Part shown: piece by piece, positions 3,579-61,350 of the stretch
How positions within the stretch are numbered: the first letter of the stretch is position 1
Layout: the number at the start of each line of letters is the position of its first letter
Assembly: GCA_964387845.1 (NCBI GenBank)
Contig: CAYLXA010000001.1
Location: forward strand, 320,001 to 384,000
Origin: an uncultured bacterium
GTDB taxonomy: Bacteria > Omnitrophota > Omnitrophia > Omnitrophales > Abzuiibacteriaceae
Direction of reading: 5' to 3'
Length of the DNA stretch: 64,000 nucleotides
The notes under the pieces: model-generated
The model's input: only the letters and a program-made list of their open reading frames with translations
Databases searched by the model: none
What the model was told of the DNA's origin: nothing
Position numbers and translations under genes: made by a program

Positions 3579-4887
3579 GCCGGTACATCAAAAACCCTGA
3601 GCCCAACTTCGGGTAAAAATAAGTAGACTTTTGCGGCATCAATTCTCCCGAAGCGCAAATAGCCTGCATCACTTTGGCTTCAATCGGCGGCACAATCACA
3701 GCCGCGTCAAACTTCTTGGAGCGTACGCCTTCGAGTGCCTCATCCGAAAAGCGCGTGTATTCGAGAAAATGCTCGAGATTTTTATCATCAACACCAAGAT
3801 GTTTCAAAACCAAATGTGAAACCTGCGCGACTTCAAGCCGGTACCAAATGTCGGGTTTTCCGGCCGGCATCTCCGCGCGTGCTTTTTGAATGTCTTTGAT
3901 TTTAAATAAAATCGATTCACCGGGAAAACAAACCGCGAAAGCGTCCCTGATTTTTCCCTGCGCGAGTTCTTTTACTTCCGTCTCGGAAATTTTTCTCGAG
4001 TCAAATAAGGGCGAAAGGATTTGCGACAATTCTGACGCGCTTACTTTTTTGATGTTCTTGAGCTGCCGATGGATGGGAAAAATTAAAAGCCCTTCATCTT
4101 CCAATTCCACAAGCCCCATTAAGCAATAATCGGAAGGCTGCAAGCTGCCAGCTTCAGGCTTCAAGCTTGAAGTTTGCAATTTGGAGCCTGCAGCTTGAAG
4201 CTTGCGGCTTGCGGCTTGTTCTTGGCTATAGCGCAAAGCGGTTTCATAACGGTGATGGCCATCCGCGATTAAAACCTGCTTATCGGAAAACATTTTTGAA
4301 ATCTGCGTTTTGTCGGATGAATCCGAAACCGCCCAAAGTTTGTGCGCTTCACCGTCAGAAAATTTAAATTCGTATAACGGTTTTTGTTTCTCAAATTTCT
4401 TTCTCAGTTCCTGGGCGGTTCTTTCAGAATCTTGATAAAGCCCATAAACCGGCGAAATGTTGGTTTTGATTGCTGAGAGCAGCTTGAACCGATCTTCCTT
4501 CGGGCCGGAATGCGTTTTTTCGTGCGGCAAAATCACTTTTGATTCAAAAGGCTCCACTTGAAACAGACCAAAAATCACGACGCGCGTCTTGATGCGGCCC
4601 GATTCTGGGTCTTTGAAGATGGTTTCGTAAAGATAAAAACTCTCTTTTGTGTCTTTTTCGAGAATTTGCTTCCTCAGCCATTCGTTCAGAAATTCAGAAG
4701 CTTTTTGATATTTCACACTCGCATCTTCTTTACCGTATTCGATACGAATGATGTTGTAGGGACTTTTACCGTAAAGCGCTTCCTGCTCGGCAGGTGAAAT
4801 AATATCGTAAGGCGGAGCAACCACTTGATCCATTTTGACGGACCCGGAATTGTAACGCAGTGCGCGGAAAGGTTTGATAATAGCCAT
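3571..4887 (-). CDS. DUF1015 family protein (conserved hypothetical).
   Basis: The N-terminus, MAIIKPFRALRYN…VVAPPYDIISPAEQEALY, matches the characteristic DUF1015 start. It carries an in-frame low-complexity insertion (KLQAAGSKLQTSSLKPEAGSLQP) encoded by the family-6 repeat at 4136–4225. It overlaps the PabB-like gene by 8 nt. Confidence 0.6.
   Translation of the reverse strand: MAIIKPFRALRYNSGSVKMDQVVAPPYDIISPAEQEALYGKSPYNIIRIEYGKEDASVKYQKASEFLNEWLRKQILEKDTKESFYLYETIFKDPESGRIKTRVVIFGLFQVEPFESKVILPHEKTHSGPKEDRFKLLSAIKTNISPVYGLYQDSERTAQELRKKFEKQKPLYEFKFSDGEAHKLWAVSDSSDKTQISKMFSDKQVLIADGHHRYETALRYSQEQAASRKLQAAGSKLQTSSLKPEAGSLQPSDYCLMGLVELEDEGLLIFPIHRQLKNIKKVSASELSQILSPLFDSRKISETEVKELAQGKIRDAFAVCFPGESILFKIKDIQKARAEMPAGKPDIWYRLEVAQVSHLVLKHLGVDDKNLEHFLEYTRFSDEALEGVRSKKFDAAVIVPPIEAKVMQAICASGELMPQKSTYFYPKLGSGFLMYRHE
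4136..4225. repeat. Family-6 repeat (gcttgaagc / gcctgcagc / ttcaggcttcaagc units), in frame inside the DUF1015 CDS.
   Basis: Read directly: caagctgccagcttcaggcttcaagcttgaagtttgcaatttggagcctgcagcttgaagcttgcggcttgcggcttg. A related copy lies at 53690–53790. Confidence 0.65.
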
Positions 4888-4892
4888 ATTAA

Positions 4893-4976
4893 CGTAAATT
4901 CAAATCTCAAATTTCAAAATAATTTTGATATTTGAAATTTGAATTTGTTTTGAGATTTGATATTTGAATTTTGAAA
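4893..4976. repeat. Family-5 AT-rich palindromic repeat (aaattcaaatctcaaatttcaaaat … attttgaaatt), intergenic.
   Basis: It shares the motif taaattcaaatctcaaatttcaaaat and tttgatatttgaaatttgaattt with 54108–54212. It lies between the csaA-like stop and the DUF1015 start. Confidence 0.7.
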
Positions 4977-7098: not shown

Positions 7099-7340
7099 CC
7101 GTCATTGCGAGGCGCTTAAATTGTCGCCGAAGCAATCTACGTTTTAAGCTTTGAAGAAGCCCTTCGCTCAGTGAATTCAACGTGAGAAATCTATTTGCTT
7201 AGGCATTGGAACACCTTCCACCGTTCCTACAATACTTAACGCTGTAGGCCGTCGGCTTTCCAACGCCTTCACACATGATTTCTCTCTCACGAATTCAATT
7301 CGCTTCGGCGCTTCTTCAAAGCTTTCCGCGCCACCCGCAT
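7099..7340. repeat. Family-3 palindromic element, expanded ~240 bp form (MITE-like). Outer arms gtcattgcgag…cgaagcaatctacgtt / gcttcggcg…; centre palindromic around 7230.
   Basis: The left end at 7099–7160 matches 14625–14665, and the right end at 7303–7340 matches the right half of the short copy. The inner ~140 bp is itself an imperfect palindrome (cctacaatacttaacgctgtagg). Confidence 0.6.
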
Positions 7341-7377
7341 CTAAATCCTAAGGCCGCAAATTGCGACCTTAGAATTT

Positions 7378-7917
7378 CTACCCAATCTTCCCGGGCCGAT
7401 GCGGATCCATCTCAAAACCAATCGCATCCGTAGTCGGCGGCGCCAAAAGCGGCCTAATCATTTTGAACAATCTCTGCAAAGCTCTGTCGTGATCGAGCAG
7501 AACCTTCTCAATTTCATCCAATCGTCCGTGCAGAATTTGATTCAGGTTGAAAACTTCTCTCAATCTCACAAAAGCACGGATCACGTAAACGCTCATACGG
7601 ACAGCTCGGTCACTGTTTAAAATGTTGGCTGCCATTAACGCCCCGTGTTCTGTGAAAGCAAAAGGAAGATACCGATCGCCACCCCGACCCTCTTTCTTTG
7701 AGGTCACAATCTGTGACCTCAAAAATTCTGCTTCCTCCAGAGTAAGCTGAAACATGAAATCTGCCGGAAAACGGCTTCGGTTACGTTTGACAGCTTGATT
7801 GAATGCTTTTGTGCTCACCCCATAAAGCTCCGCTAAGTCACGGTCAAGAATAACGCTCTGACTCCGGATGATGAGAACACGATTTTCTACAGCTAATTTA
7901 GGACCTCTTTTAGACAT
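7378..7917 (-). CDS. ORF6N domain protein (KilA-N-related, phage antirepressor-like DNA-binding family).
   Basis: ILDRDLAELYGVSTKAFNQAVKRNRSRFPADFMFQLTLEE is the hallmark ORF6N N-terminal block. Confidence 0.7.
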   Translation of the reverse strand: MSKRGPKLAVENRVLIIRSQSVILDRDLAELYGVSTKAFNQAVKRNRSRFPADFMFQLTLEEAEFLRSQIVTSKKEGRGGDRYLPFAFTEHGALMAANILNSDRAVRMSVYVIRAFVRLREVFNLNQILHGRLDEIEKVLLDHDRALQRLFKMIRPLLAPPTTDAIGFEMDPHRPGKIG

Positions 7918-8070
7918 GAAACACCCCTCTTATTGGTTTTAAATGGAGGGGGGATTTTAATTTTGTTTTTTACTGCGGGAGATATGGAATTATATATAAC
8001 TTTTACGATTAATCAACACTCAACTTCTAGCCTGTCCCCTTAGAAGGTGCCTGGCACTTTTTTTATGAGA

Positions 8071-8739
8071 TCAAATGACCCCTTTCATTAATGTTTCTTT
8101 AACTTTCTTGGCATTTTTTAGTCCTTCGTCAATCAAAGAAATAAAATACTCAATTTCTCCATTTAAAGTACTAGGATAAAAATCTCCAACCCGACAGCAT
8201 CCTTCACAAATTCCATCCATAGCTTGAACGTAAGCGGTTTCAGCAAATGTAAGCCATTCACGCGTTTCATTCCATGTTTCCTTCCCATCATGAGTACGCC
8301 AGGGGAAATTATGAACACGTTGAATATTCCGATGAGGATTTATCTTGTCACTAATATCTTTTATTTTTTCCTCGTACTCATCAAAATGAGATAAAAACTC
8401 TTTTCGTTGTTGTTTTAACCTATCTTTTGAGAAAGTCTGTCTTTCTAATTTTAGTTCAATATTTTCTTCTGAAACTTCTTTGCTTTTTTGCATTAAATTC
8501 CATAAACTAGCTTCACTAGAACGACCAAAAATCTTTCCTAAAGCGAGAATGTACTTTGTTTCCAAAGCATCTCGAATAAAGCTGAATAAGCCACCAAATT
8601 CTCGTTCAAATCCTTCTGATTGAACAAGCCCGTTATTCCATTTGAATAATAAAGCATGGAAAATGTTAGCCTCGCAAAGATCTCTGCTTACACAGGTTTC
8701 TATTACCTTCAGTGAATCTTGAACTTCATCCATCATCAA
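8071..8739 (-). CDS. Hypothetical protein, 222 aa, in an AT-rich (compositionally atypical) gene. It has an Rx5H motif (HRNIQRVH), so it may be a HEPN-like nuclease or abortive-infection-type protein.
   Basis: The ORF is visibly more AT-rich than its neighbours. Predicted product is largely helical. No family was recognised with confidence. It is co-directional with, and immediately upstream of, the ORF6N gene. Confidence 0.5.
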   Translation of the reverse strand: MMMDEVQDSLKVIETCVSRDLCEANIFHALLFKWNNGLVQSEGFEREFGGLFSFIRDALETKYILALGKIFGRSSEASLWNLMQKSKEVSEENIELKLERQTFSKDRLKQQRKEFLSHFDEYEEKIKDISDKINPHRNIQRVHNFPWRTHDGKETWNETREWLTFAETAYVQAMDGICEGCCRVGDFYPSTLNGEIEYFISLIDEGLKNAKKVKETLMKGVI

Positions 8740-8834
8740 CCTCCAATAAATTCATGATTCTGTACCAATTATAAAAGCATTCATATTTTATGCCCCCAAT
8801 TCGCAGAAGACAACCTGGTTCTCGAAATAGAACG

Positions 8835-8900
8835 CCCTCACCCCCTCCGGGCCTAAGGCCCGATAGGGCCGGAGGCTCACCCTACCCCTCTCCCAAAGGG
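8835..8900. repeat. Family-1 nested palindromic repeat (ccctcaccccctccgggcc…ggccggaggctcaccctacccctctcccaaagggagaggg).
   Basis: Read directly. It shares the ccctcaccc and ccctctccc-NNN-gggagaggg cores. Confidence 0.75.
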
Positions 8901-8964
8901 AGAGGGAAAAACAAAGGAAGAATCTGGCTTTGTGGAGGCGGCTCTCGGAATCCTTCAGAGCTTG

Positions 8965-9045
8965 GTCCCCCACCGTTTTGTTTCGCAAAGCGAGGCAGCG
9001 GGGGTCTGAAGGATGAGAGCGCAGGCGGTCGAGCCCGCGGGAGGC
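8965..9045. repeat. Family-2 repeat (second copy).
   Basis: ggtcccccaccgttttgtttcgcaaagcgaggcagcgggggtctgaaggatgagagcgcaggcggtcgagcccgcg aligns with 5608–5690. Confidence 0.7.
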
Positions 9046-9081
9046 GAGAACCGCCGGCGCCGGAACAAAGCTAGATTCTGA

Positions 9082-9963
9082 CTAAATTAGTGCTAATCCG
9101 ATTAATTTGTAAATAAGGCGCGCGACGAGGAAATTGGGGGCGTGAAGCTTTTCTATCGGTGATAATTCCATGACATCAAAACCAACAATTTTTCGTGACT
9201 TGGCGATTTCCCTAAAAAGCGCCATGGCTTCATGCCACAAAAGACCGTTGGGTTCCGGTGTTCCGGTTGCGGGCATAATCGAAGGGTCAAAACCATCTAC
9301 ATCGATCGTAATATAAACTTCATCCGTTAAATTGGTCAGCGCGGTGTGAATCCAATCTTGAATTGCCATCTTTTTGATTTCGTGCGCGTATAAAATGTTT
9401 ACGTTTTGCTTCTTGGCGACCCTGATTTGATCCGGTGAAATGCTGCGGATACCGACTTGCGAAAGCGGGCACTTTCCTGCAATGCGCGCCGCAATTGAGG
9501 CGTGCGAATAAGGCGTTCCCTCATAAGAATCGCGCAAATCCGCGTGAGCGTCGATCTGCAGAACGGACATTTTGGGATATTTCTTCAAGTGTGATTTGAT
9601 TAACGCGCTTGAAATAGAATGTTCACCGCCGATTCCGACCAGGAATTTATTTTCCGAGAGAATTTCATCCGATCGCTTTTCCAATCTTTCGATAAATTGC
9701 TTCGGGTCTTTTTCCTTTGCGGCAGGTTTGAAGCTTGGAAGTGTCGCAATCGATACCTTTTTACATGTTTCAACACCCAATTCCTCATCGTAATACTCCA
9801 CATAACGAGAAGCATCAATAACAGCTTTGGGGCCGCGGGATGTGCCTTTTCCGTAAGAGACCGTTCCTTCATAAGGAACCGGCAAAACAGCAACTTTGGA
9901 TTTGGTGTAAGCGGGTTCGGGATCCTGGCCTAAAAAGTTAAATGGGGCTTTTTCGTGCTGCAT
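9082..9963 (-). CDS. speB: Agmatinase (arginase/ureohydrolase family).
   Basis: The manganese-binding motifs GGEHSIS, DAHADL and SIDVDGFDP are present, and the size is 293 aa. It is adjacent to the pyruvoyl arginine decarboxylase gene. Confidence 0.8.
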   Translation of the reverse strand: MQHEKAPFNFLGQDPEPAYTKSKVAVLPVPYEGTVSYGKGTSRGPKAVIDASRYVEYYDEELGVETCKKVSIATLPSFKPAAKEKDPKQFIERLEKRSDEILSENKFLVGIGGEHSISSALIKSHLKKYPKMSVLQIDAHADLRDSYEGTPYSHASIAARIAGKCPLSQVGIRSISPDQIRVAKKQNVNILYAHEIKKMAIQDWIHTALTNLTDEVYITIDVDGFDPSIMPATGTPEPNGLLWHEAMALFREIAKSRKIVGFDVMELSPIEKLHAPNFLVARLIYKLIGLALI

Positions 9964-10013
9964 AGGTAATCCTTCGAGAAACTCAGGATGAGTGGGTCAG
10001 CAAGCTGACCTCC

Positions 10014-10559
10014 TCACACGATAAAAACGCAGGAAGCGAGAACGGTGGTCCAGCGGCCGTCTTTATCGCCTTCGGCGCTTTGCGTCACTTCCGTGGTACG
10101 GACGATTTGATTTGAAATTTTCCAGATTTCGCGCTTAGCGTCGTAACTAGAATCCGGATCAAACTTCACACCGGAGACCGTTGCCAACATTTCAGCCGCC
10201 AAGTCTTCGGCATAATCGCCCGTTTTTTTATCCGTCCAGCCGTAAGCGTGATGTTCTGACAAATAGCCGTGCTGGTTCGAGTCTTTTGGAATCGCAATGC
10301 CGACACTGGCTGAAATCAACCTGTTGGGCTCGTTCGTTGCATTGTCGCTCATCACGCAAAACACGATTTGGCCGGCTGAAAGATACTTCAAACCTTCTTT
10401 GCTCGGAATGATTTTGCAGTTGGGTGGGAAAATGCTCGATACTTTTACCAAATTATAGTTCGCAATACCGGCATCGCGCAGCGCAAGCTCAAAGCTGGCC
10501 AATTTTTCAAGATGAATGCCGACGCCTTTCGTCATAAAACATTTTTTGGGTAGAATCAC
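10014..10559 (-). CDS. pdaD: Pyruvoyl-dependent arginine decarboxylase.
   Basis: MILPKKCFMTKGVG…ALRDAGIANYNLVKVSSIFPP has the size (~180 aa) and N-terminal pattern of PdaD proenzymes, and it is adjacent to speB. Confidence 0.7.
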   Translation of the reverse strand: MILPKKCFMTKGVGIHLEKLASFELALRDAGIANYNLVKVSSIFPPNCKIIPSKEGLKYLSAGQIVFCVMSDNATNEPNRLISASVGIAIPKDSNQHGYLSEHHAYGWTDKKTGDYAEDLAAEMLATVSGVKFDPDSSYDAKREIWKISNQIVRTTEVTQSAEGDKDGRWTTVLASCVFIV

Positions 10560-10575
10560 GTTCGAGTCTCCTTAA

Positions 10576-11955
10576 TTAACGGTCCACAATATCGTCTGAA
10601 GCAACAATCGGAATCAAGCCGCCGTTCTGCATAATGTTAATCACAGTTTCATCGCCAAGTTTTGAAATACCGCCTGCGTATTTCCAATCAAACACAAAAG
10701 CGCCGACGCTCACGCGGCGATAAACCATCTCGAGTTTGTTATTCACGATGGCCGGAACGGTCATTTTGGGAACGCTCACATATTCCTGAATGATCCAATT
10801 GTTCTTGAGCGCCTTGTCGATCGCGGCGTTCCAATCTTCATCGCGTGTTTCGGCGCCGATCACGACATCGCCCCGGTTTCCGTAGCCGATGGTGGGTTTT
10901 AAAACCAAAGAATCCTTTTCATCTTTCAAAAAATCAATCAAATAGCTTTTCCGCCTGCCGTAAAAACGTTCGGCATCCGACACCTGGCGCGTCCACGGCA
11001 GATGATTTTGCTTAAACTCATTTTCTTTGTCCGTGAAATAACGGTCGTAATCGGGATTCGTTAAAATAGATATCAAGGCACGGCTCGAGGCGAGGCGCGA
11101 CCTTAAAGGATTAACCATGCACACCGCACGTTCACGGTAAGCCTTCAGAAAATCTTGGATTTCATCGGCTTTTTCGGCGAGCTCATGACAAACGACGCGG
11201 CGGTATACCAAATCAACCCTGAAATTACCATGATAAAGCTTTCCGGTCTTGAATTTAAGCTCTCTGGGGTCTGCAATGGTTGCCTTGTAGCCTTTGGACT
11301 CAAAAAATGCCTTTAGGATCTCAAATTCGGGGCGCGTGCGGACCGATTTCCAATCCACAATCGCAATATTGGGCGTCTCAAATCCGCCGAATTCCTCATA
11401 AGCGCTTAAAAGTGCCGAGAGAAGTCTCTCGAAGCGCTCTTCTTTCTTAAAATGAAACTCGGCAAAAAAATCTTTCAAATCCGGTGTTTCAAAAATGATT
11501 TTCTCAAGCTCATTGGCATAAGCCGTACCGGCCGGCGCATCGCAGTTGAGCTGAATAAACTTGAGTGCTTCGCCTTCTAAGAATCCATCCAGACGCATCA
11601 TCACGACATTGCGTGAATAACCGGGATCGATTTTGATTAATTCCTGGATTTCCGGCGTGTAGCGAAAGTGCTCCGCCACCACGGGATCCGTAAAATAAAG
11701 GTTGGTTGCTTTGTTGACAATGGAAAGAAAACTATCGGAAACCGTCCGAAGAATTTTTTCCTGCTTGGCCGTAATAAAATGCGGCTTCAGGAAAGCCGGA
11801 ACGATGAAGCGGCCGTACTTGATATTCTGCTTTTTGAGCTCTTCCTGGAAATGATTGATGGCTTTCGGGAAACTCTTTTCATGCGCCATCACGAATTGAT
11901 CGAAGGCGTAATCGATGCTTTTATTGGAATCAATGGATGAAGGTGTCCACGCCAT
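10576..11955 (-). CDS. ATP-grasp superfamily acid–amine ligase (glutathionylspermidine-synthase-like / circularly permuted ATP-grasp type).
   Basis: Its architecture and blocks (LVLKPTIGYGNRGDVVIG, ISILTNPDY…HLPWT) resemble YgiC/GspS-type ligases. It lies between sucD and pdaD, with 3–17 nt spacings. Confidence 0.4.
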   Translation of the reverse strand: MAWTPSSIDSNKSIDYAFDQFVMAHEKSFPKAINHFQEELKKQNIKYGRFIVPAFLKPHFITAKQEKILRTVSDSFLSIVNKATNLYFTDPVVAEHFRYTPEIQELIKIDPGYSRNVVMMRLDGFLEGEALKFIQLNCDAPAGTAYANELEKIIFETPDLKDFFAEFHFKKEERFERLLSALLSAYEEFGGFETPNIAIVDWKSVRTRPEFEILKAFFESKGYKATIADPRELKFKTGKLYHGNFRVDLVYRRVVCHELAEKADEIQDFLKAYRERAVCMVNPLRSRLASSRALISILTNPDYDRYFTDKENEFKQNHLPWTRQVSDAERFYGRRKSYLIDFLKDEKDSLVLKPTIGYGNRGDVVIGAETRDEDWNAAIDKALKNNWIIQEYVSVPKMTVPAIVNNKLEMVYRRVSVGAFVFDWKYAGGISKLGDETVINIMQNGGLIPIVASDDIVDR

Positions 11956-11958
11956 AGG

Positions 11959-12852
11959 TTATTTCTTTACCAGAATACCCGCTTCCTCAAGACGTTTCTG
12001 CATTGTATTGCCGATTTCGGCCGGGCTGTCTGCAACCGGAATTCCGAGTCCGCGCAACGTCTTGATTTTGTCAGCCGCAGTGCCGCTTCCTCCTGAAATA
12101 ATAGCACCTGCGTGGCCCATCCGCTTTCCGGGCGGTGCCGTTTGACCGGCTATAAAGGCAACGACCGGTTTTTTCATCTTTTTATTAATAAATTCTGCGG
12201 CCTTCTCCTCCGCCTCACCGCCGATTTCACCGATCATGAGCACGGCCTGCGTGCCGGGATCTTTCTCGAAAAGTTCGAGGCAATCAATAAAATTGGTTCC
12301 CAAAACAGGGTCTCCGCCGATTCCGATACAAGTCGATTGCCCAATACCGAGATTCGTGAGCTGCCAAACTGCTTCATAAGTGAGCGTTCCGCTGCGCGAA
12401 ACAACGCCGACAGCCCCGGCTTTATGAATATAGCCCGGCATAATGCCGATTTTGCAAGCACCCGGCGTGATGACACCCGGACAATTCGGTCCGATTAAAC
12501 GTACAGGCTTGCCCGCGAGTTTCTTTTTGACTTCGATCATATCTAATGTCGGAATGCCTTCTGTGATACACACCACAAGGCGAATTCCGCCGTCGGCAGC
12601 TTCTAAAATCGCGTCTTTGGCAAATTTTGCGGGAACATAAATAACACTCGCATCGGCTTTGGTGGCTTGAACGGCGTCTTTGACGGAATTAAAAACAGGA
12701 ATTTCATCAACCTTCTGGCCGCCTTTTCCGGGCGTGACGCCGCCGACAACTTTGGTGCCGTATTCCACCATCTGCTTAGCATGAAACGCGCCGTGCGTAC
12801 CGGTAATGCCCTGCACAATCACGCGCGTTTCGGAATTGACTAAAATAGACAT
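11959..12852 (-). CDS. sucD: Succinyl-CoA synthetase alpha subunit.
   Basis: [16 protein letters not shown]…, CoA-binding and phospho-His loop blocks (SRSGTLTYE), 297 aa. Confidence 0.9.
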
Positions 12853-14021
12853 TACTTCTTCCCTTGTGACGCCGCGACCACTTTTTTGGCAGCGTCCGTT
12901 AAATTTTCTGCGAGTGAAATATTGAGGCCCGAGCTCTTTAAAATCGCGAGGCCTTCTTTAACATTGGTGCCTTCGAGGCGAACGACAAGCGGCACTTTGA
13001 TCTGCACTTGCTTCGCCGCAGCCACGATTCCTTGCGCCACCACATCGCATTTCATGATCCCGCCAAAAATATTGACCAAAATGGCTTTTACATTCGGGTC
13101 CTGCAGGATGATTTTAAAAGCGGCCGATACTTTATCAACGCTCGCGCCGCCGCCCACGTCTAAAAAATTTGCCGGCTCTCCGCCGTGCAGCTTGATAAGA
13201 TCCATCGTCGCCATCGCAAGCCCGGCGCCGTTCACCATGCAGCCGATATTGCCGTCGAGGCCGACATAACTAAGATCAAATTTTTTAGCTTCCACTTCCC
13301 GTGCATCTTCTTGAGATGTGTCGCGCATTTCGGCAATTTCCGGATGCCGGAAAAGCGCATTATCATCGAAAACTGCTTTCGAATCGACGATAAACACATC
13401 GCCGCTTTCTAAAACGCCGAGCGGATTAATTTCCAGAAGAGAAATGTCCTTTTTAACAAACACCTGCGACAAAACCGAAATGATTTTGGCGATCTGCTTT
13501 TTCTGTGCTTCCGTTAGAGATGCTTTTTGAATCAGCTTCAAAGCATCGGCTTCCTTAACACCCGCCGCCGGATCAAAATGAAGCTTCATGATTTTATCCG
13601 GATGCGTTTTGGCGACTTCTTCTATGTCCATACCGCCCATTTCCGAAAAAACCACACACGGAAGTTCTTTTTCGCGATCCATCACGGCCGCCAAATAAAG
13701 TTCTTTTTTAAGAATACTCGCAGATTCTAATAATACAGAATTGATTGGCTGGCCCTTTCCGGCAGTCTGATATGTCACCAGCGATTTTCCGATAAGAGAC
13801 TGGGAAAACTCGAAAGCTTCTTTCACAGTCTTCACGATTTTAACGCCGCCGGCTTTTCCGCGGCCGCCGGCATGGACTTGGGCCTTCACAACCAGCGGCA
13901 ATTTGCCGATCGCGGCAATGTCGTTTTCCGACAAAGTGTCTTTGGTAAACACTTTCCCGGTCGGGACCGGAAGCCCTTCGGCTCTAAAAATTTCTTTGGC
14001 TTGATATTCGTGTACTTTCAT
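12852..14021 (-). CDS. sucC: Succinyl-CoA synthetase beta subunit (ADP-forming).
   Basis: [20 protein letters not shown]…, ATP-grasp N-domain, 389 aa. Its stop overlaps the sucD start. Confidence 0.9.
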
Positions 14022-14031
14022 TTTTTATCCA

Positions 14032-14100
14032 GTGTTAAGTTGTAAGTGATAAGTTTTAAGTTATTCAATTACTTACCACTTATAACTTATCACTTACCAC
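14032..14100. repeat. Family-4 heptad hairpin (tandem NNTAAGT heptamers on one arm, ACTTANN on the other).
   Basis: gtgttaagttgtaagtgataagttttaagt – tattcaatt – acttaccacttataacttatcacttaccac. It sits between the gamma-CA stop and the sucC start. Confidence 0.75.
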
Positions 14101-14104
14101 TATG

Positions 14105-14617
14105 TTACAAACTTACAAAACGTCCCCGCGCGTGTTCCGCTGCAAGCTGAGCGTACCGCTTGGCCCATTCGATCTGGCCTTTGACTTCTTTCTTGGTCAA
14201 TTTCCGCTTAAATTTAGCCGGCATTCCAAGATATAAACTCTCAGGTTTTACCTTCATCCCTTCCGTCACAAGCGCTCCGGCGCCCACGAGTGCGCCTTCG
14301 CCAATCACCGCGTCATTTAAAATAATCGCGCCCATTCCGATCAAGGCGCCCGATTTTACCGTACACGCATGCAAAATCACATTGTGCCCAACCACGCAAT
14401 AATCACCCACGTAACAGCCGCGCTCGCGCTCTAAATGTACGAGCGAGAGATCCTGAATGTTTGTGTATTTACCGATCACAATTTCATTAATGTCGCCGCG
14501 CAGCACCACGCCGGGCCAGATATTGGCATAATCCTTGAGCGTCACGCGCCCGATCACTTGCGCAGACGGATGAACCCAGACATTCTTCCCGAGTTTCGGC
14601 TTATAAGTAAAAGTCGT
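14105..14617 (-). CDS. Gamma-class carbonic anhydrase family / hexapeptide-repeat protein.
   Basis: Left-handed beta-helix hexapeptide repeats (VIGRVTL…, IWPGVVLRGDINEIVIGKYTNIQDLSLVH). The start was placed at MTTFTY because the upstream 11 codons fall inside the family-3 repeat. Confidence 0.65.
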   Translation of the reverse strand, partial: TTFTYKPKLGKNVWVHPSAQVIGRVTLKDYANIWPGVVLRGDINEIVIGKYTNIQDLSLVHLERERGCYVGDYCVVGHNVILHACTVKSGALIGMGAIILNDAVIGEGALVGAGALVTEGMKVKPESLYLGMPAKFKRKLTKKEVKGQIEWAKRYAQLAAEHARGRFVSL

Positions 14618-14624
14618 CATTGCG

Positions 14625-14702
14625 AGACATAGTGATTGGTGTCGAAGCAATCTACGTTCTGAGATTGCTTCGGCGAAGTTTTCAAAGCGCCTCGCAATGA
14701 CG
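14625..14702. repeat. Family-3 palindromic element, short form (gtcattgcgag…cgaagcaatctacgttctgagattgcttcg…ctcgcaatgac).
   Basis: It is a near-perfect palindrome read directly. Its left half is identical to 7100–7140. Confidence 0.75.
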
Positions 14703-14711
14703 GTATTTGCA

Positions 14712-15461
14712 TTATTTCTTCAAAAAATCCAATAGATTGACCGTGATCTGGCGGTTGACTTCGGCAATCGAAGTGACGAGCGGAATCTGCTTTGGGCAGG
14801 CCTTCACACAATTCTGCGCATTCCCACAATCTTCAATGCCGCCTTTTTCCATCAAAGCTTCTAAACGTTCTTTTTTCAGCACGGCGCCGGTCGGATGCGC
14901 ATTGAACAGCCTGACTTGGCTGATCACGGCAGCACCGACAAAATCCGAGCGGTCGTTAATCTGCGGACAAACTTCCATGCAGCAGCCGCAGGCAATACAG
15001 CGCGACAGTTCATAATTTTCGAGCGCTTGCTCGGGCTGAATCCGGGGCCCCGGCCCAAGCGCATAAGTTCCGTCAATCGGAACCCAGGTTTTTGTGCGTT
15101 TCAAACTTTTAAAAATGCGGCTTCGGTCGACCGCCAAATCACGCACGACCGGGAATTTGGTCATCGGTTCAATTGTGATTTCATCGCCCAAATGATCGAC
15201 GAGCGTTGAGCACGCCTGCCTGACTTTTCCGTTAATCACCATCGTGCACGTGCCGCACACTTCTTCAAGGCAGCTGGCTTCCCAGGTAATGACCGATGTT
15301 GCGCGGCCGTCAAAAGTTTTTGGATTTTTACGCAGATCCTGGAGGCACGTGATGATATTCATGTACGGGCGGTACTTGATTTTATACTCTTCCCAATACG
15401 GTTTCGTATTCGGCCCGTCCTGGCGCTTGATTTTGATTTTAATCGAATCAAATTTTGCCAT
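14712..15461 (-). CDS. sdhB: Succinate dehydrogenase / fumarate reductase iron–sulfur subunit.
   Basis: 2Fe-2S and 4Fe-4S cysteine clusters (CIACGCCMEVCP, CGNAQNCVKACPKQIP). Confidence 0.85.
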   Translation of the reverse strand: MAKFDSIKIKIKRQDGPNTKPYWEEYKIKYRPYMNIITCLQDLRKNPKTFDGRATSVITWEASCLEEVCGTCTMVINGKVRQACSTLVDHLGDEITIEPMTKFPVVRDLAVDRSRIFKSLKRTKTWVPIDGTYALGPGPRIQPEQALENYELSRCIACGCCMEVCPQINDRSDFVGAAVISQVRLFNAHPTGAVLKKERLEALMEKGGIEDCGNAQNCVKACPKQIPLVTSIAEVNRQITVNLLDFLKK

Positions 15462-17200: not shown

Positions 17201-17815
17201 TTAGACTCTCACTAAGTGAATCAGCGAACTGAGGCCCATCGTGAAAACAATTACGCCAAGAAGCGCGGAAAACACGGCTGAGACTCTTTGTGATTTTGGC
17301 CCGACCGTAATGCCCCAGCTGATTGCAAATCCCCAAAGGCCGTTTGCAAAATGGAAACACACGGCAGCAAGACCAACGATGTAAAACCAAAATGTAAACG
17401 GATTCGCCATAAGTTCCTGCATCCGCGCAAAACTCACTTCCGTTCCGTAAAGCGCGTGCATAATGCGTGTTTCATAAACGTGGTACAAAATATAGGCAAA
17501 CGTAATCAAGCCCGTCCAGCGCTGAAGTACATAGAGAAAATTTTTTGTGTTCGGATAAGACGACAGGTTGGATTTTCCGCTAAACCAGACGTAGAAACCG
17601 TAACCGGCATGATACAAAATCGGAAGCGCGATAAAGATGATTTCAAGTGCAACCACAAACGGCAAACTTTGCAGGAATTCGATTTTTTCGTTGTAAGCTT
17701 CCGGGCCTTGTGTAATGAAGGAATTCGTGAACATGTGCTCCAGCAAAAAAGCGCCGATCGGAAATACGCCGGAAAGCGAGTGGAGCCTTCTAAGCCAGAA
17801 TGAGGATTTAGACAT
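17201..17815 (-). CDS. sdhC: Succinate dehydrogenase cytochrome b subunit (five-helix, dihaem type B-like).
   Basis: About 200 aa, five hydrophobic helices with conserved His residues. It sits immediately upstream of sdhA in the same strand block. Confidence 0.6.
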   Translation of the reverse strand: MSKSSFWLRRLHSLSGVFPIGAFLLEHMFTNSFITQGPEAYNEKIEFLQSLPFVVALEIIFIALPILYHAGYGFYVWFSGKSNLSSYPNTKNFLYVLQRWTGLITFAYILYHVYETRIMHALYGTEVSFARMQELMANPFTFWFYIVGLAAVCFHFANGLWGFAISWGITVGPKSQRVSAVFSALLGVIVFTMGLSSLIHLVRV

Positions 17816-17820
17816 TTTTC

Positions 17821-17910
17821 AGTCGTAAGTTGTAAGTGGTAAGTCGTAAGTTAATAAAATGGTAAGTTTTTGCTTCTTACTTACCACTTATCACTTACGA
17901 CTTACAACTG
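17821..17910. repeat. Family-4 heptad hairpin.
   Basis: cgtaagt tgtaagt ggtaagt cgtaagt … acttacc acttatc acttacg acttaca. The right arm begins at the mdh stop codon. Confidence 0.75.
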
Positions 17911-48204: not shown

Positions 48205-48290
48205 CTTAGTGCTAAGGGGTAAGTGATAAGTGGTAAGTAGAAAAACGATTTTACTTATCGCTTAGCACTTACCACTTATCACTCGTTAGT
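48205..48290. repeat. Family-4 heptad hairpin (convergent gene ends).
   Basis: cttagtgctaaggggtaagtgataagtggtaagtag … tacttatcgcttagcacttaccacttatcactcgttag. Confidence 0.75.
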
Positions 48291-53849: not shown

Positions 53850-54107
53850 ATGCAAAAGTGCGCAGTTTGTGAAAAAGGCCCCATCAGCGGCAACTCCATT
53901 GCCCGCCGTGGTATGGCCAAGAAAAAAGGCGGGGTCGGTAAGAAAATTACAGGGATTAAACGCCGCCGGTTTTTACCGAATCTTCAGCGTGTTAAGGCCA
54001 TTATTGGCAACGGGACAGTTCGCCGAATTTGGGTTTGTTCGGCTTGCCTTCAGGCCGGAAGAGTTAAAAAAGCGGTTTCCCGGAAATCACTCCAAACCGT
54101 AGCTTAA
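53850..54107 (+). CDS. rpmB: 50S ribosomal protein L28.
   Basis: MQKCAVCEKGPISGNSIARRG…RRFLPNLQ. The start was moved to the internal Met at codon 23 of the track ORF. Confidence 0.75.
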   Translation: MQKCAVCEKGPISGNSIARRGMAKKKGGVGKKITGIKRRRFLPNLQRVKAIIGNGTVRRIWVCSACLQAGRVKKAVSRKSLQTVA

Positions 54108-54212
54108 ATTCAAATCTCAAATTTCAAAATTCAAAATAATTCAAATTACTAAATTCCAAATTGAAACATTTGAATTTAGAATTTGTTTTGATATTTGAAA
54201 TTTGAATTTAAA
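54108..54212. repeat. Family-5 AT-rich palindromic repeat (second copy), between convergent rpmB and recJ.
   Basis: taaattcaaatctcaaatttcaaaat…ttgatatttgaaatttgaattt. Confidence 0.7.
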
Positions 54213-55881
54213 ATTGTCTCAAATCTTTCACTTCCAGAACGACTGACTCGATTCCATCCCATTCTTTTAATTTCGGGGAATATACAATTTCATAAGCCCC
54301 GCTCTCAGGGATCTGCTTAGGTTGAGGGTCTTTCTGTGTCCAATTGGCTTCAAACGTCGCACCATCAGCGCTCACCCACCAACGCAACGTTTGCGGGCTT
54401 GCCTGCGTAATTTTGGTTTTGGTCTGAACATTCCGAGTTAAAAATGACGGCCGCGGATTTCCGGCGCCGAAAGGCTCAAATAATTCGATTTCGCGCAAAA
54501 CCGTCGGCGTTAAATCCGAAAATAAAATTTCGAGATCATACCGAATTGATTTAGTGAAAATCACCGGCGGAATTTGCGCTGCATACTCATTGATCTTTTG
54601 CCTGAAATTCCGCAACTCACCCTCTAATATCGAAAAACCGGCTGCCAGCTCATGGCCTCCGAACTCTTCCACGTGATCTTTGCTGAACTCAAGCGCTTCG
54701 AATAAATGAAATCCGCGCACGGAGCGGCCCGATGCCTTCCCTTTTCCATTTTCAAGCGCGATCACCAGGCTCGGGCGGTTGAAACGTTCGACCAAACGCT
54801 GCGCCACAATTCCAATCACGCCCTGATGCCAGCCTTCGGACCAAATGACAATGACTTTATCGCGGTTAAAATTAATTTCCTTCTCAACTTTTGCTATCGC
54901 CTGCCTTAAAACTTCGCGTTCTTCCTGCTGGCGTGCTTTATTTTCAGTATCCAATAATTTTGCAAGCTCATCGGCTCTTTGTTCGTCCTGAGAAATCAAA
55001 AGCTCGAGCGCTTTATCGCCCGAACTCATGCGCCCGCTGGCATTAATTCTGGGCCCAAGCATAAATCCGAGATGCGCGGAATTGATCTTGCGGGATTTGA
55101 TCTTTGCCACATTGCAAAGCTTTGATAATCCGACAGAATTTCTTTTGGATATCAATTCCATGCCGAATTTAACGATCAAACGGTTTTCATCCACAAGCGG
55201 CGCCACATCGCAAATCGATGAAAGCGCGGCCAAATCCAGAAGCGAAAGCGCAAAGCGGCCCACAAGCGCCTGCGACAATTTAAACGCAAGCCCCGCTGCG
55301 GAAAGCTCCTTAAATGGATACTGGCAGCCTTCCTGAAGTGGATTAATGATTGCGAAAGCTTCGGGCAAATTCCCGCCGTGAATCTGGTGGTGATCAATCA
55401 CAATCGAATCGATGCCGGCGTTTTTTGCGGTTTTGACTTCGTCAATCGCGGTGATGCCGCAATCTACCGTGATGATGAGCTTGGTGCCGTTTTGTGTCGC
55501 GGCTTGAACAGCATCTTCGCTGACCCCGTAGCCGTCTTTCTTGCGGTGCGGAATGAACGTATAAAATTTAGCACCGAGCTTCTTCAGGGTCAGCGCCATA
55601 ATCGCAGCGCCCGTCACGCCGTCTACGTCATAATCGCCGTGAACCATGATGAGCTCTTTGCGCTCGGCAGCCTGCAGAATGCGTTTCGAAGCTTCTTTAA
55701 CACCCTTCATTAAAAAAGGGTCATAAAATTGATCGAGTGCGGGAAATAAAAATTTGGAGGAGGCGGCTTCCGTATGAATCGATCGGAGCGCGAGTAATTT
55801 CGTAACAAGCGGTGAATACGACAGGGTTTCGGACGGTAAAGCAGAGCCGGAAACTTCTTTTTGCTGCCAAATGGTATGCAT
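54208..55881 (-). CDS. recJ: Single-stranded-DNA-specific exonuclease RecJ.
   Basis: DHH motifs (HGDYDVDGVTG, DHH at VIDHHQ), 557 aa. Confidence 0.85.
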   Translation of the reverse strand: MHTIWQQKEVSGSALPSETLSYSPLVTKLLALRSIHTEAASSKFLFPALDQFYDPFLMKGVKEASKRILQAAERKELIMVHGDYDVDGVTGAAIMALTLKKLGAKFYTFIPHRKKDGYGVSEDAVQAATQNGTKLIITVDCGITAIDEVKTAKNAGIDSIVIDHHQIHGGNLPEAFAIINPLQEGCQYPFKELSAAGLAFKLSQALVGRFALSLLDLAALSSICDVAPLVDENRLIVKFGMELISKRNSVGLSKLCNVAKIKSRKINSAHLGFMLGPRINASGRMSSGDKALELLISQDEQRADELAKLLDTENKARQQEEREVLRQAIAKVEKEINFNRDKVIVIWSEGWHQGVIGIVAQRLVERFNRPSLVIALENGKGKASGRSVRGFHLFEALEFSKDHVEEFGGHELAAGFSILEGELRNFRQKINEYAAQIPPVIFTKSIRYDLEILFSDLTPTVLREIELFEPFGAGNPRPSFLTRNVQTKTKITQASPQTLRWWVSADGATFEANWTQKDPQPKQIPESGAYEIVYSPKLKEWDGIESVVLEVKDLRQF

Positions 55882-55889
55882 TTTTTCAG

Positions 55890-55960
55890 CGCTAAGTGAT
55901 AAGTGGTAAGTGTTAAGTAAATCGAATGACTTAACACTTATGACTTACCACTTATCACTA
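55890..55960. repeat. Family-4 heptad hairpin.
   Basis: gctaagtgataagtggtaagtgttaagt … acttaacacttatgacttaccacttatcac. Confidence 0.75.
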
Positions 55961-60042: not shown

Positions 60043-60118
60043 AGTTGTAAGTCGTAAGTGGCAAGTGTTAAGTTGATTGATTAACTTAGCACTTACAACT
60101 TACCACTTATCACTCGTT
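60043..60118. repeat. Family-4 heptad hairpin.
   Basis: ttgtaagtcgtaagtggcaagtgttaagt … acttagcacttacaacttaccacttatcactcgtta. Its terminal motif is identical to the copy at 48205–48290. Confidence 0.75.
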
Positions 60119-60120
60119 AA

Positions 60121-61191
60121 TCAAATAATCAGCATCGCATCGCCATAGGAATAAAACCGGTAACGATTTTGAATGGCTGTTTGATACGCCTGTTTTAAAT
60201 TTTCAACACCGCAAAATGCCGACACGAGCATGAGCAGCGTTGTCTTCGGTAAATGAAAGTTTGTGATCATCGCATCCACGATTTTAAATTCATACGGCGG
60301 ATAAATAAACAAGTTTGTATCGCCCCGCTTTGGCTCCACTTCGCACGGAATTGAATTTTTGGCGGCCGATTCGAGCGTCCGGACAACCGTTGTACCGCAG
60401 GCAATGACACGCCGGCCGGCAGTTTTGGCGAAATTAATGAGCTCCGCGGTTTCATCCGGAATTTCAAAATATTCCGAATGCATTTGATGCTGCTCGATTT
60501 GGTCGTGAGCAACCGGCTGAAATGTTCCGTAGCCGACATGCAGTGTCACATAAGCAATTTGAATTCCTTTCGCTTCGATTTTTTTCAAAAGCGCTTCATC
60601 AAAATGAAGGCCGGCTGTCGGGCTTGCAACCGCACCCGGCTTACGCGCAAAAACCGTTTGATAAAGATCGCGGTCAATTTCGGAATCGGGCCTATCGATA
60701 TAAGGCGGCAGCGGCACGCAGCCGATTTTATCGAGCTTTGTCTTTAAATCTCCTGTACCCTGAAATTCGAGATGGCGAATTCCGGTTGTGCCGTCAGCCG
60801 AATCTAAGACTTTTGCTTTTAGTTCAATTCCATCTGCAGAAAAATTCAAAACATGAGTTTCTTTCACGCGGCCCGAAGGTTTGAGCAGCGCTTCCCATCG
60901 ATTGTTGCCTTGGTCTTTCAGCAAAAGCACTTCGACCGATCCGCCGGATTCTTTTTTGGCAAAAAGCCGTGCCGGCAGAACTTTGGTGTCGTTTAGAATC
61001 AAAAGATCGCCAGGAATCAAATAATCGAGAAGATTTGAAAAATGGCGATGCTCGATTTTGCCGCCTTCGCGGCCCAAAACCAAAAGCCGGGCTGCGGAAC
61101 GTTCCGGATTGGCTTCTTGCGCAATCAACTCCTGCGGTAAAGCGTAATCGAAATCGCTTAATTTCAGCGGATAGCGTTTAGCGGATAGCAT
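60121..61191 (-). CDS. queA: S-adenosylmethionine:tRNA ribosyltransferase-isomerase.
   Basis: DFDYALPQELIAQ N-terminus, 356 aa. Confidence 0.9.
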   Translation of the reverse strand: MLSAKRYPLKLSDFDYALPQELIAQEANPERSAARLLVLGREGGKIEHRHFSNLLDYLIPGDLLILNDTKVLPARLFAKKESGGSVEVLLLKDQGNNRWEALLKPSGRVKETHVLNFSADGIELKAKVLDSADGTTGIRHLEFQGTGDLKTKLDKIGCVPLPPYIDRPDSEIDRDLYQTVFARKPGAVASPTAGLHFDEALLKKIEAKGIQIAYVTLHVGYGTFQPVAHDQIEQHQMHSEYFEIPDETAELINFAKTAGRRVIACGTTVVRTLESAAKNSIPCEVEPKRGDTNLFIYPPYEFKIVDAMITNFHLPKTTLLMLVSAFCGVENLKQAYQTAIQNRYRFYSYGDAMLII

Positions 61192-61350
61192 ATAGGAAAG
61201 AAAGGTGTTTCATAAATAAAACATTTTTTGGTCGATTTTTTTGATTTTTTTCTATACGCTGTACGCTATCCGCTACTCATAACGCGCCCGCCCCACAGGG
61301 GCTGGCGCTTAACTTTGATAAATAACCGTCTTGAAATCCTAGAGTAGTTA

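Follow-up and report, generated by a model that had tools for sequence, protein, structure and literature searches.

A REP-type hairpin unit, probably in or beside the CGTC-tagged repeats, at two loci of an Omnitrophota genome

The closest described systems to the element reported here are the CGTC repetitive extragenic palindromic sequences (REPs), which form the families CGTC-1 to -4 and include Neisseria dRS3 and Rickettsia RPE-4 and RPE-6 (Di Nocera, De Gregorio and Rocco 2013, PMC3733652). These repeats carry unpaired CGTC or TGTC tags, AT at the first two stem positions and 3-nt tails with the consensus CCA. Their stems are of 8-9 bp with loops of 4-5 nt, and according to their authors bulged classes may have escaped the search. 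Most of them are head-to-head (HH) dimers, other arrangements being rare; no transposase is associated with them, and how they move was left open by the authors who defined them (PMC3733652). Here we describe a small hairpin unit that occurs in a 64-kb stretch of DNA from an uncultured bacterium of the Omnitrophota (contig CAYLXA010000001.1, positions 320,001 to 384,000; hereafter the window, meaning this whole stretch). Two such units form a short element, the short copy, between sdhB and a gamma-carbonic anhydrase-like (gamma-CA-like) gene, and a third lies at a larger palindromic locus, the long locus, between the genes for inositol-1-phosphate synthase (Ino1) and an ORF6N protein. A preliminary description of this DNA had regarded the two loci as a short and an expanded form of one family resembling miniature inverted-repeat transposable elements (MITEs). 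We consider it likely that the short copy is a tags-outward inverted dimer of a REP-type unit, in or right beside the CGTC/TGTC-tagged REP superfamily, that the hairpin spreads as DNA, and that the long locus is an old composite.

On the plus strand the short copy reads CGTCATTGCGAG (14615-14626), ACATAGTGATTGGTGT, CGAAGCAATCT (14643-14653), ACGTTCTG, AGATTGCTTCG (14662-14672), GCGAAGTTTTCAAAGCGC and CTCGCAATGACG (14691-14702); the coordinates of this and the other features are given in Table 1. Pairing is confined to the outer arms (12 bp) and the inner arms (11 bp), both of them 100% complementary. The intervening segments of 16 and 18 nt are not complementary to one another, and each closes on itself (ACA...TGT and GCG...CGC, respectively). 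Because these segments pair within themselves and not with each other, we read the element as two inverted copies of one unit. It had earlier been taken for a near-perfect palindrome of 78 bp at 14625-14702, and both extent and character need correction; its placement between sdhB and the gamma-CA gene agrees with the gene coordinates. Within the window GTCATTGCGAG occurs exactly three times (7101 +, 14616 + and 14701 -), and the pattern GTCATTGCGAG-N(0-30)-CGAAGCAATC gives three matches, with none in 100 dinucleotide shuffles.

The unit consists, in order, of a YGTC tag, a 5-bp stem starting with AT, GA, an inner hairpin, GAA, the return strand, C and a short tail. In the short copy it takes the form YGTC-ATTGC-GA-(own small hairpin)-GAA-GCAAT-C, and unit length is 25-45 nt. 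All three units of the window carry a CGTC tag, which lies outside the stem in the folds; their second hairpins have loops of 10-12 nt, and their tails are C followed by TA or TC. As DNA, unit B of the short copy folds with the expected 5-bp stem and a 4-bp inner stem, and the intact unit of the long locus likewise folds with the expected architecture. In sequence collections the first stem covaries: ATTGC..GCAAT was found in at least 120 stretches and ATTCT..AGAAT in at least 120, while the mixed combinations occurred once and seven times. The inner segment closes with at least three pairs in 34 of 71 distinct variants (about 3 in shuffles), the others being nested, of the form GA-(GCGNAGC)-GA. 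GCGNAGC is also the commonest tip of the unit; it is described as an extraordinarily stable DNA minihairpin, much less stable as RNA, which occurs at single-strand replication and transcription signals (2026 review, PMC13037366).

Arrangement and composition were determined on the first 252 loci (two pattern scans and 12 orthologous contigs), which hold 671 units. The GA/GAA internal loop is present in about 65% of these units (436-439 by two counts). GTC is preceded by C in 78 and by T in 72 of 157 dimers, hence by C or T in 150 of them, and both CCAG-type and T-type tails are common in the collections. The stem variants ATTCT, ATCCT, ATCGC and ATTCC likewise begin with AT, a feature that is partly built into the sampling, as the search patterns already contain GTCAT. 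Pairs of units comprise 164 tags-outward dimers, 12 tags-inward and 20 tandem arrangements, and about half of the units are single. Paired units are mostly separated by less than 45 nt, with a thin tail to about 140 nt in which some long forms are nested composites. Single units show no strand bias relative to co-directional genes (26 sense, 23 antisense). The repeated object is a hairpin of 25-45 nt which often stands alone, and not an element that terminal inverted repeats define.

The unit is widely dispersed. Its dimer core (CGAAGCAATCT, 4-12 nt, AGATTGCTTCG) was observed in species-representative genomes of more than 15 phyla among the matches listed, including Omnitrophota (about 20 loci), Chloroflexota, Bacteroidota, Planctomycetota, Patescibacteria, Gemmatimonadota, Nitrospirae, Ignavibacteria and others, and Alpha-, Gamma- and Deltaproteobacteria are also among the genome matches listed. 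More than 20 identical bases are retained across phyla. In annotated plasmids most of the canonical dimers come from alphaproteobacteria (Novosphingobium, Methylobacterium, Methylosinus, Methylocystis), and all of them lie outside the listed genes. The unit pattern has at least 120 matches in viral contigs. Since cultured phages are nearly devoid of it (4 of 50,697 records match), the viral matches are environmental contigs, some of which may be bacterial DNA.

A few loci are peculiar in their arrangement. One viral contig has four head-to-tail minimal units (GTCATTGCGAGCCTGCGAAGCAATC plus 8 nt, period 33) inside a long open reading frame (ORF; L046:2695-2818), and two loci carry two tandem copies of the minimal unit each (L020 and L021). 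In some viral contigs single units lie just upstream of ribosome-binding sites. Locus L076 contains two elements of about 130 bp (8244-8375 and 9036-9165) in which inverted unit pairs enclose a loosely similar core of about 83 nt, and these come nearest to a genuine long form of the family. A metagenome-assembled genome labelled Klebsiella pneumoniae (L147, CAMBFS010000006.1) has three dimers within 8 kb, which is unusual for the species; the species label or the binning may be wrong.

With the CGTC REPs the unit has in common an unpaired CGTC/TGTC tag at one end, a stem that starts with AT and, it seems, a short unpaired tail. Both are mostly intergenic, occur in several phyla and are frequent in alphaproteobacteria; in both, inverted dimers predominate (we assume that our tags-outward dimer equals the published HH arrangement) and no transposase is associated. 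They differ in the tail, which is CCA in the published families and CTA or CTC in the window units, and in range, as five phyla were reported for the CGTC REPs compared with the more than 15 found here.

Named homologues of SdhB and Ino1 also assign the source organism to the Omnitrophota. The fate of the sdhB/gamma-CA junction in relatives shows gain, replacement and flipping. A contig of the same strain (L122) has the identical element. At 93.5% DNA identity (L121) the element is present as its reverse complement, with 74 of 89 positions identical in that orientation and 64 of 92 in the direct one, and a few flanking bases differ as well. At about 80-83% DNA identity (L124 and L374) the junction holds another dimer, GTCATCCCCGC...GCGGGGATC plus GATTCCCGCTTTCGCGGGAATGAC (also written GTCATCCCCGC.../...GCGGGAATGAC), which has the shape classic for CGTC-1, so that the unit and the CGTC REPs have this site in common as well. 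The junction is empty in L253, whose SdhB falls into one cluster with that of the window at 90% identity (DNA identity about 75%), and in L127 and L130, whose SdhB is 79-80% identical. Because presence, absence, replacement and inversion are all seen among relatives, the short copy is an insertion that turns over and not a conserved ancient structure; conservation in place, which the preliminary description had set against a mobile element, is not found at this junction.

Other observations in these relatives concern the same region. L374 has a second copy of its CGTC-1-type dimer 4.5 kb away, and L130 has about ten units in 20 kb, including dimers at the mdh-sdhC, sdhA-sdhB, gCA-sucC and sucC-sucD junctions. 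Directly beside a CGTC-1-type dimer in L374 lies CCGCAATGACGG (L374:14279-14310), which resembles what is left of an ATTGC-type unit, a hint that one insertion site has been used repeatedly. The gamma-CA-like protein has an N-terminal extension of 15-20 residues in L127 (10779-11336) and L130 (10753-11325), both of which have no element. In genomes with the element the protein is without the extension and its start ATG lies inside or beside the terminal repeat. In contigs identical to the window a 171-aa product is called from this ATG, and the N-termini align. It may be that the present start codon arose through the insertion.

The long locus has a different history. The composite extends over 7100-7324, and its intact unit begins 2 nt past the stop codon of the Ino1 gene. 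A left terminus common to both copies, as proposed before, is well supported: 7099-7141 aligns to the minus strand of the short copy with 39 of 43 columns matching, one 3-nt gap and a score of 61 (shuffles: mean 13, maximum 26). The variable segment of this unit resembles that of unit B, the 16 nt after the unit resemble the other strand of the short copy, and CGAAGCAATCTACGTT is identical to the short copy's plus strand. For the proposed right terminus there is a weak but above-chance remnant, ATT(C)GCTTCGGCG..TTCAAAGC at about 7298-7322 (score 27, maximum 23 in 500 shuffles), and the outermost repeat CTCGCAATGAC is missing. The additional palindromic core that had been noted is indeed there, as an imperfect palindrome of 179 nt, with Ino1 and ORF6N converging on it from either side. 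Its calculated folding energy is -80.7 kcal/mol for the plus strand (z -7.3) and -99.6 kcal/mol for the minus strand (z -6.4).

No further copies of this hairpin were found within the window or the fetched loci, and a 24-mer from it matches only the L374 contig in JGI metagenomes. L374 is the sole relative that shares the Ino1-ORF6N junction, and it keeps the whole composite at the same position, including the unit, in which GAA is changed to GTG. The hairpin is 85% identical between the two (88% without gap columns), the Ino1 and ORF6N coding sequences 83% and 88.5%, respectively, and the spacer after the hairpin about 60%. In this comparison, which is of two sequences only, five varying pairs are kept and five broken on the minus strand, and two kept and five broken on the plus strand. 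Because its core is unique in the data searched and the composite is conserved in place in L374, the long locus behaves as the preliminary description had expected of an ancient structure, and it is not an expanded form of the family; the suggestion of nested REP insertions, made in the same place, comes close to the truth for it. We take the long locus to be an old single-copy composite of a unit, a decayed partner and a unique hairpin, apparently older than the split from the L374 lineage, and a role as a 3'-end structure of both transcripts is probable.

We propose that the unit would spread as DNA, in the form of a folded single strand handled in trans by a putative enzyme. The view of a DNA-level, single-strand element rests on the lack of strand bias, the absence of target-site duplications (below) and a tip that favours DNA over RNA. 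The handling would resemble the action of REP-associated tyrosine transposases (RAYTs) or IS200-type HUH enzymes on the GTAG REPs and REPINs of E. coli and Pseudomonas, which are mobilised by RAYTs (HUH/Y1). With these repeats the unit shares a short, imperfectly paired hairpin whose 5' tetranucleotide tag is unpaired, usual occurrence as inverted doublets, no target-site duplication and an intergenic location, often between convergent or co-directional genes. It differs from them in tag and sequence, and whereas GTAG REPs are largely species-specific the unit keeps its identical bases across phyla. A phmmer search for IS200-like TnpA or RAYT proteins over the window and 373 loci (about 3 Mb) gave no match, a weak test, the query sequence being approximate and RAYTs being divergent. 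Clustering of 1754 neighbouring ORFs from the first 240 pattern-match loci revealed no recurrent transposase; the only recurrent neighbours are phage structural genes, a histidine kinase and an ABC transporter. In Flavihumibacter soli units flank a small GIY-YIG nuclease gene (L148:2140-2589), which has a homologue in one other locus. As a mobiliser this nuclease was rejected, since no more than 2 of the 373 loci hold a homologue.

Some recombination sites are recognised as folded single-stranded DNA, among them the attC sites of integrons and the sub-terminal hairpins of IS200/IS605 elements. The likeness of the unit to these would be one of architecture only: a conserved basal stem, unpaired or extrahelical bases, a variable terminal structure, and structure conserved above sequence. 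In contrast to them it has no R-box (GTTRRRY), and no integrase or TnpA gene lies nearby.

Several points weigh against the reading of the short copy as a REP-type dimer of the CGTC/TGTC superfamily that spreads as DNA. The window holds only three units. The stems of the published CGTC repeats are continuous, with small loops, whereas the unit has a 5-bp stem, a GA/GAA loop and a second variable hairpin, and neither the unit sequence nor its would-be encoded peptides were found in the text or supplements of PMC3733652; a literature search with the unit sequence on both strands returned only chance primer matches. By nearest-neighbour calculation single units do not outdo shuffled sequences (-2.7 to -6.4 kcal/mol, z -1.5 to +0.5), so it is sequence comparison and not thermodynamics that supports the fold. 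No mobilising enzyme was found among the sampled loci, and the mode of spread is deduced. Finally, hairpins recur at operon junctions in L130 and in the window, which could reflect selection for RNA structure. We nevertheless treat the unit as a variant of the CGTC/TGTC superfamily, because its traits match even though the stem and loop dimensions do not, and because bulged classes may have been missed in the original search.

A bolder reading, possible though doubtful in our view, is that YGTC-AT...GA(hairpin)GAA...AT-C might be a pan-bacterial and phage single-stranded DNA (ssDNA) signal, read by a conserved, so far overlooked enzyme unrelated to RAYTs (such as a nuclease, transposase or primase), and that in Omnitrophota it might have been recruited as an intercistronic coupler.

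We regard it as improbable that the short copy is mainly a selected cis-acting RNA structure of the sdh-suc operon (an intercistronic stabiliser, a processing site or a translational coupler) whose likeness to repeats elsewhere is secondary. Its position does fit such a role: it lies between co-transcribed genes, begins to pair 9 nt past the sdhB stop codon and has the next AUG inside the stem. Its predicted RNA folds have -43.5 kcal/mol for the plus strand (z -5.8) and -40.9 kcal/mol for the minus strand (z -7.8), and the gamma-CA AUG is paired within the outer stem of the minus-strand fold. Two further operon junctions of the window, gCA-sucC (14038-14101) and mdh-sdhC (17813-17910), carry hairpins of another sequence family, made of tandem AGTNNTA heptamers, and L130 has CGTC-type dimers at both, so that a hairpin of some kind is retained at these positions and its sequence family is what differs. 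In E. coli, REPs lying near stop codons are reported to stall ribosomes (Liang et al. 2015, in the summary given by PMC12306157). Against a selected RNA stand the empty junction in L253, L127 and L130, the different subfamily at the junction in L124, the inversion in L121, which alters the RNA sequence of the unpaired parts, the balanced orientation of single units to genes, and the presence of units in unrelated settings across more than 15 phyla.

A REP-type insertion would still have local effects here. Once inserted, the short copy would be co-transcribed within the sdh-suc operon, and the predicted minus-strand fold would sequester the gamma-CA AUG from 9 nt past the sdhB stop. Translation of gamma-CA could then be coupled to that of sdhB, ribosomes finishing sdhB opening the stem, and termination on sdhB might be slowed, as with the E. 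coli REPs near stop codons.

Very unlikely, in our judgement, is a classical MITE, in which the 12-bp ends would be the terminal inverted repeats of an insertion sequence (IS) deletion derivative moved by a DDE transposase in trans, the long copy being less deleted. The Correia elements of Neisseria and the MITEs of Coxiella are, like the unit, small, non-coding and dispersed, have inverted ends, and can be co-transcribed and reshape gene starts; the short copy does have perfect 12-bp inverted ends, and a few composites have two units around a core of 80-140 nt (L076 twice, L151 and L290). MITEs, however, have IS-matching terminal inverted repeats and target-site duplications, and neither was seen for the unit. 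Direct repeats of 2 nt or more were absent from the ends of 157 of the 164 dimers, also when the boundary was shifted by 1-2 nt. Comparisons of filled and empty sites (the phage group L003/L036/L119 and the agmatinase-PvlArgDC junction of L374) had flanks too diverged to place insertion boundaries. Unit pairs enclosing 300-2500 nt, where an autonomous element with matching ends was sought, are tags-outward in 137 cases and tags-inward in 134, hence without excess, and the ORFs they enclose are ordinary phage or housekeeping genes. The frequent single units, the conservation of a hairpin with covarying stems in place of a terminal sequence, the lack of a recurrent transposase among the roughly 1750 neighbouring ORFs, and the unique, position-conserved core of the long copy argue in the same direction. 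What stands of the mobile family proposed earlier is that the short copy belongs to a dispersed, non-autonomous palindromic family and that its position is not conserved; none of the MITE hallmarks that were looked for was seen.

A structured non-coding RNA or small self-cleaving ribozyme is scarcely credible: the conserved purine internal loop between covarying helices, which resembles the stem II side of a hammerhead, and the single units just upstream of ribosome-binding sites are in its favour, but no Rfam match was obtained at the gathering threshold or at E up to 10, the unit is a two-way junction without the hammerhead CUGANGA strand, there is no strand bias relative to transcription, and the commonest tip is stable as DNA and much weaker as RNA (PMC13037366). 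With the covariance models of Rfam 15 the sole match in the window was a tRNA, and there was none at either locus to E 10, nor in 14 repeat-rich loci. By inspection the hammerhead reading of the GA/GAA loop was ruled out for want of that strand, and K-turn and loop-E readings for want of a 3-nt bulge and an AGUA strand.

Table 1. Positions of the repeat units, hairpins and flanking genes in the window
Feature	Position	Strand	Description
Short copy	14615-14702 (88 bp)	none	Tags-outward inverted dimer of two REP-type units
Unit A	14615-14653	+	CGTC tag, ATTGC, GA, variable ACATAGTGATTGGTGT (ACA...TGT closing stem), CGAA, GCAAT, CT; pattern match 14616-14652
Spacer between units A and B	14654-14661		8 nt, ACGTTCTG
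Unit B	14662-14702	-	CGTC, ATTGC, GA, variable GCGCTTTGAAAACTTCGC, CGAA, GCAAT, CT; pattern match 14663-14701
ATG of gamma-CA-like gene	14618-14620	-	Inside terminal repeat of unit A; GCAATGAC on minus strand
Hexapeptide-repeat (gamma-CA-like) gene	14105-14620	-	Flanks short copy
sdhB stop codon	14712-14714	-	9 nt upstream of first paired base of element, mRNA strand
sdhB	14712-15461	-	Flanks short copy
Intact unit, long locus	7100-7138	+	CGTC, ATTGC, GA, GCGCTTAAATTGTCGC, CGAA, GCAAT, CT; pattern match 7101-7137
Hairpin, long locus	7146-7324 (179 nt)	none	Imperfect; 15-bp perfect base; arms about 70% alike by eye
Decayed inverted partner unit	7298-7322	-	Inner arm and variable segment, within right arm of hairpin; from local alignment
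AGTNNTA hairpins	14038-14101, 17813-17910, 48222-48283, 55888-55959, 60043-60100

Scans of the two loci for promoters and terminators gave nothing above shuffle expectation and no U-tract. The surroundings of the two loci hold some further features. The ORF6N gene adjoining the long locus is followed by a HEPN_AbiU2 gene (together 7378-8739, minus strand). L127, L130 and L253 have neither ORF6N nor AbiU2, and their gene order from PvlArgDC to Ino1 differs, while L374 keeps ORF6N and has a different gene of 369 aa in place of AbiU2; the region has the appearance of a small, variable spot for accessory or defence genes. The AGTNNTA hairpins (e.g. AGTGATAAGTGGTAAGT / ACTTACCACTTATCACT) are intergenic and unrelated to the unit. 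Three more hairpin types with the short tandem motifs AAATTCAAATCTCAAATTTCAAAA, AGCGGATAGCG and CAAGCTGCCAGCTTCAGGCTTCAAGCTT lie at 4896-4971 and 54104-54215, at 61166-61274 and at 4137-4218, respectively.

The unit is a fairly ordinary repeat of modest interest. How CGTC REPs move was left as a question by those who defined them. The present data do not answer that question; they sharpen it, through the architecture of the unit, the missing target-site duplications and strand bias, and its inversion and replacement in place. A hairpin module of about 30 nt that keeps more than 20 identical bases over more than 15 phyla and viral contigs, with both stems covarying, is of interest beyond this window. 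If the ssDNA-signal reading were true, the CGTC-type repeats would be a second and far wider REP system, with its mobiliser still to be found. For annotation, the unit accounts for many spurious short ORFs and some shifted gene starts, as where it supplies the ATG of the gamma-CA-like gene, and it marks junctions that vary between close strains.

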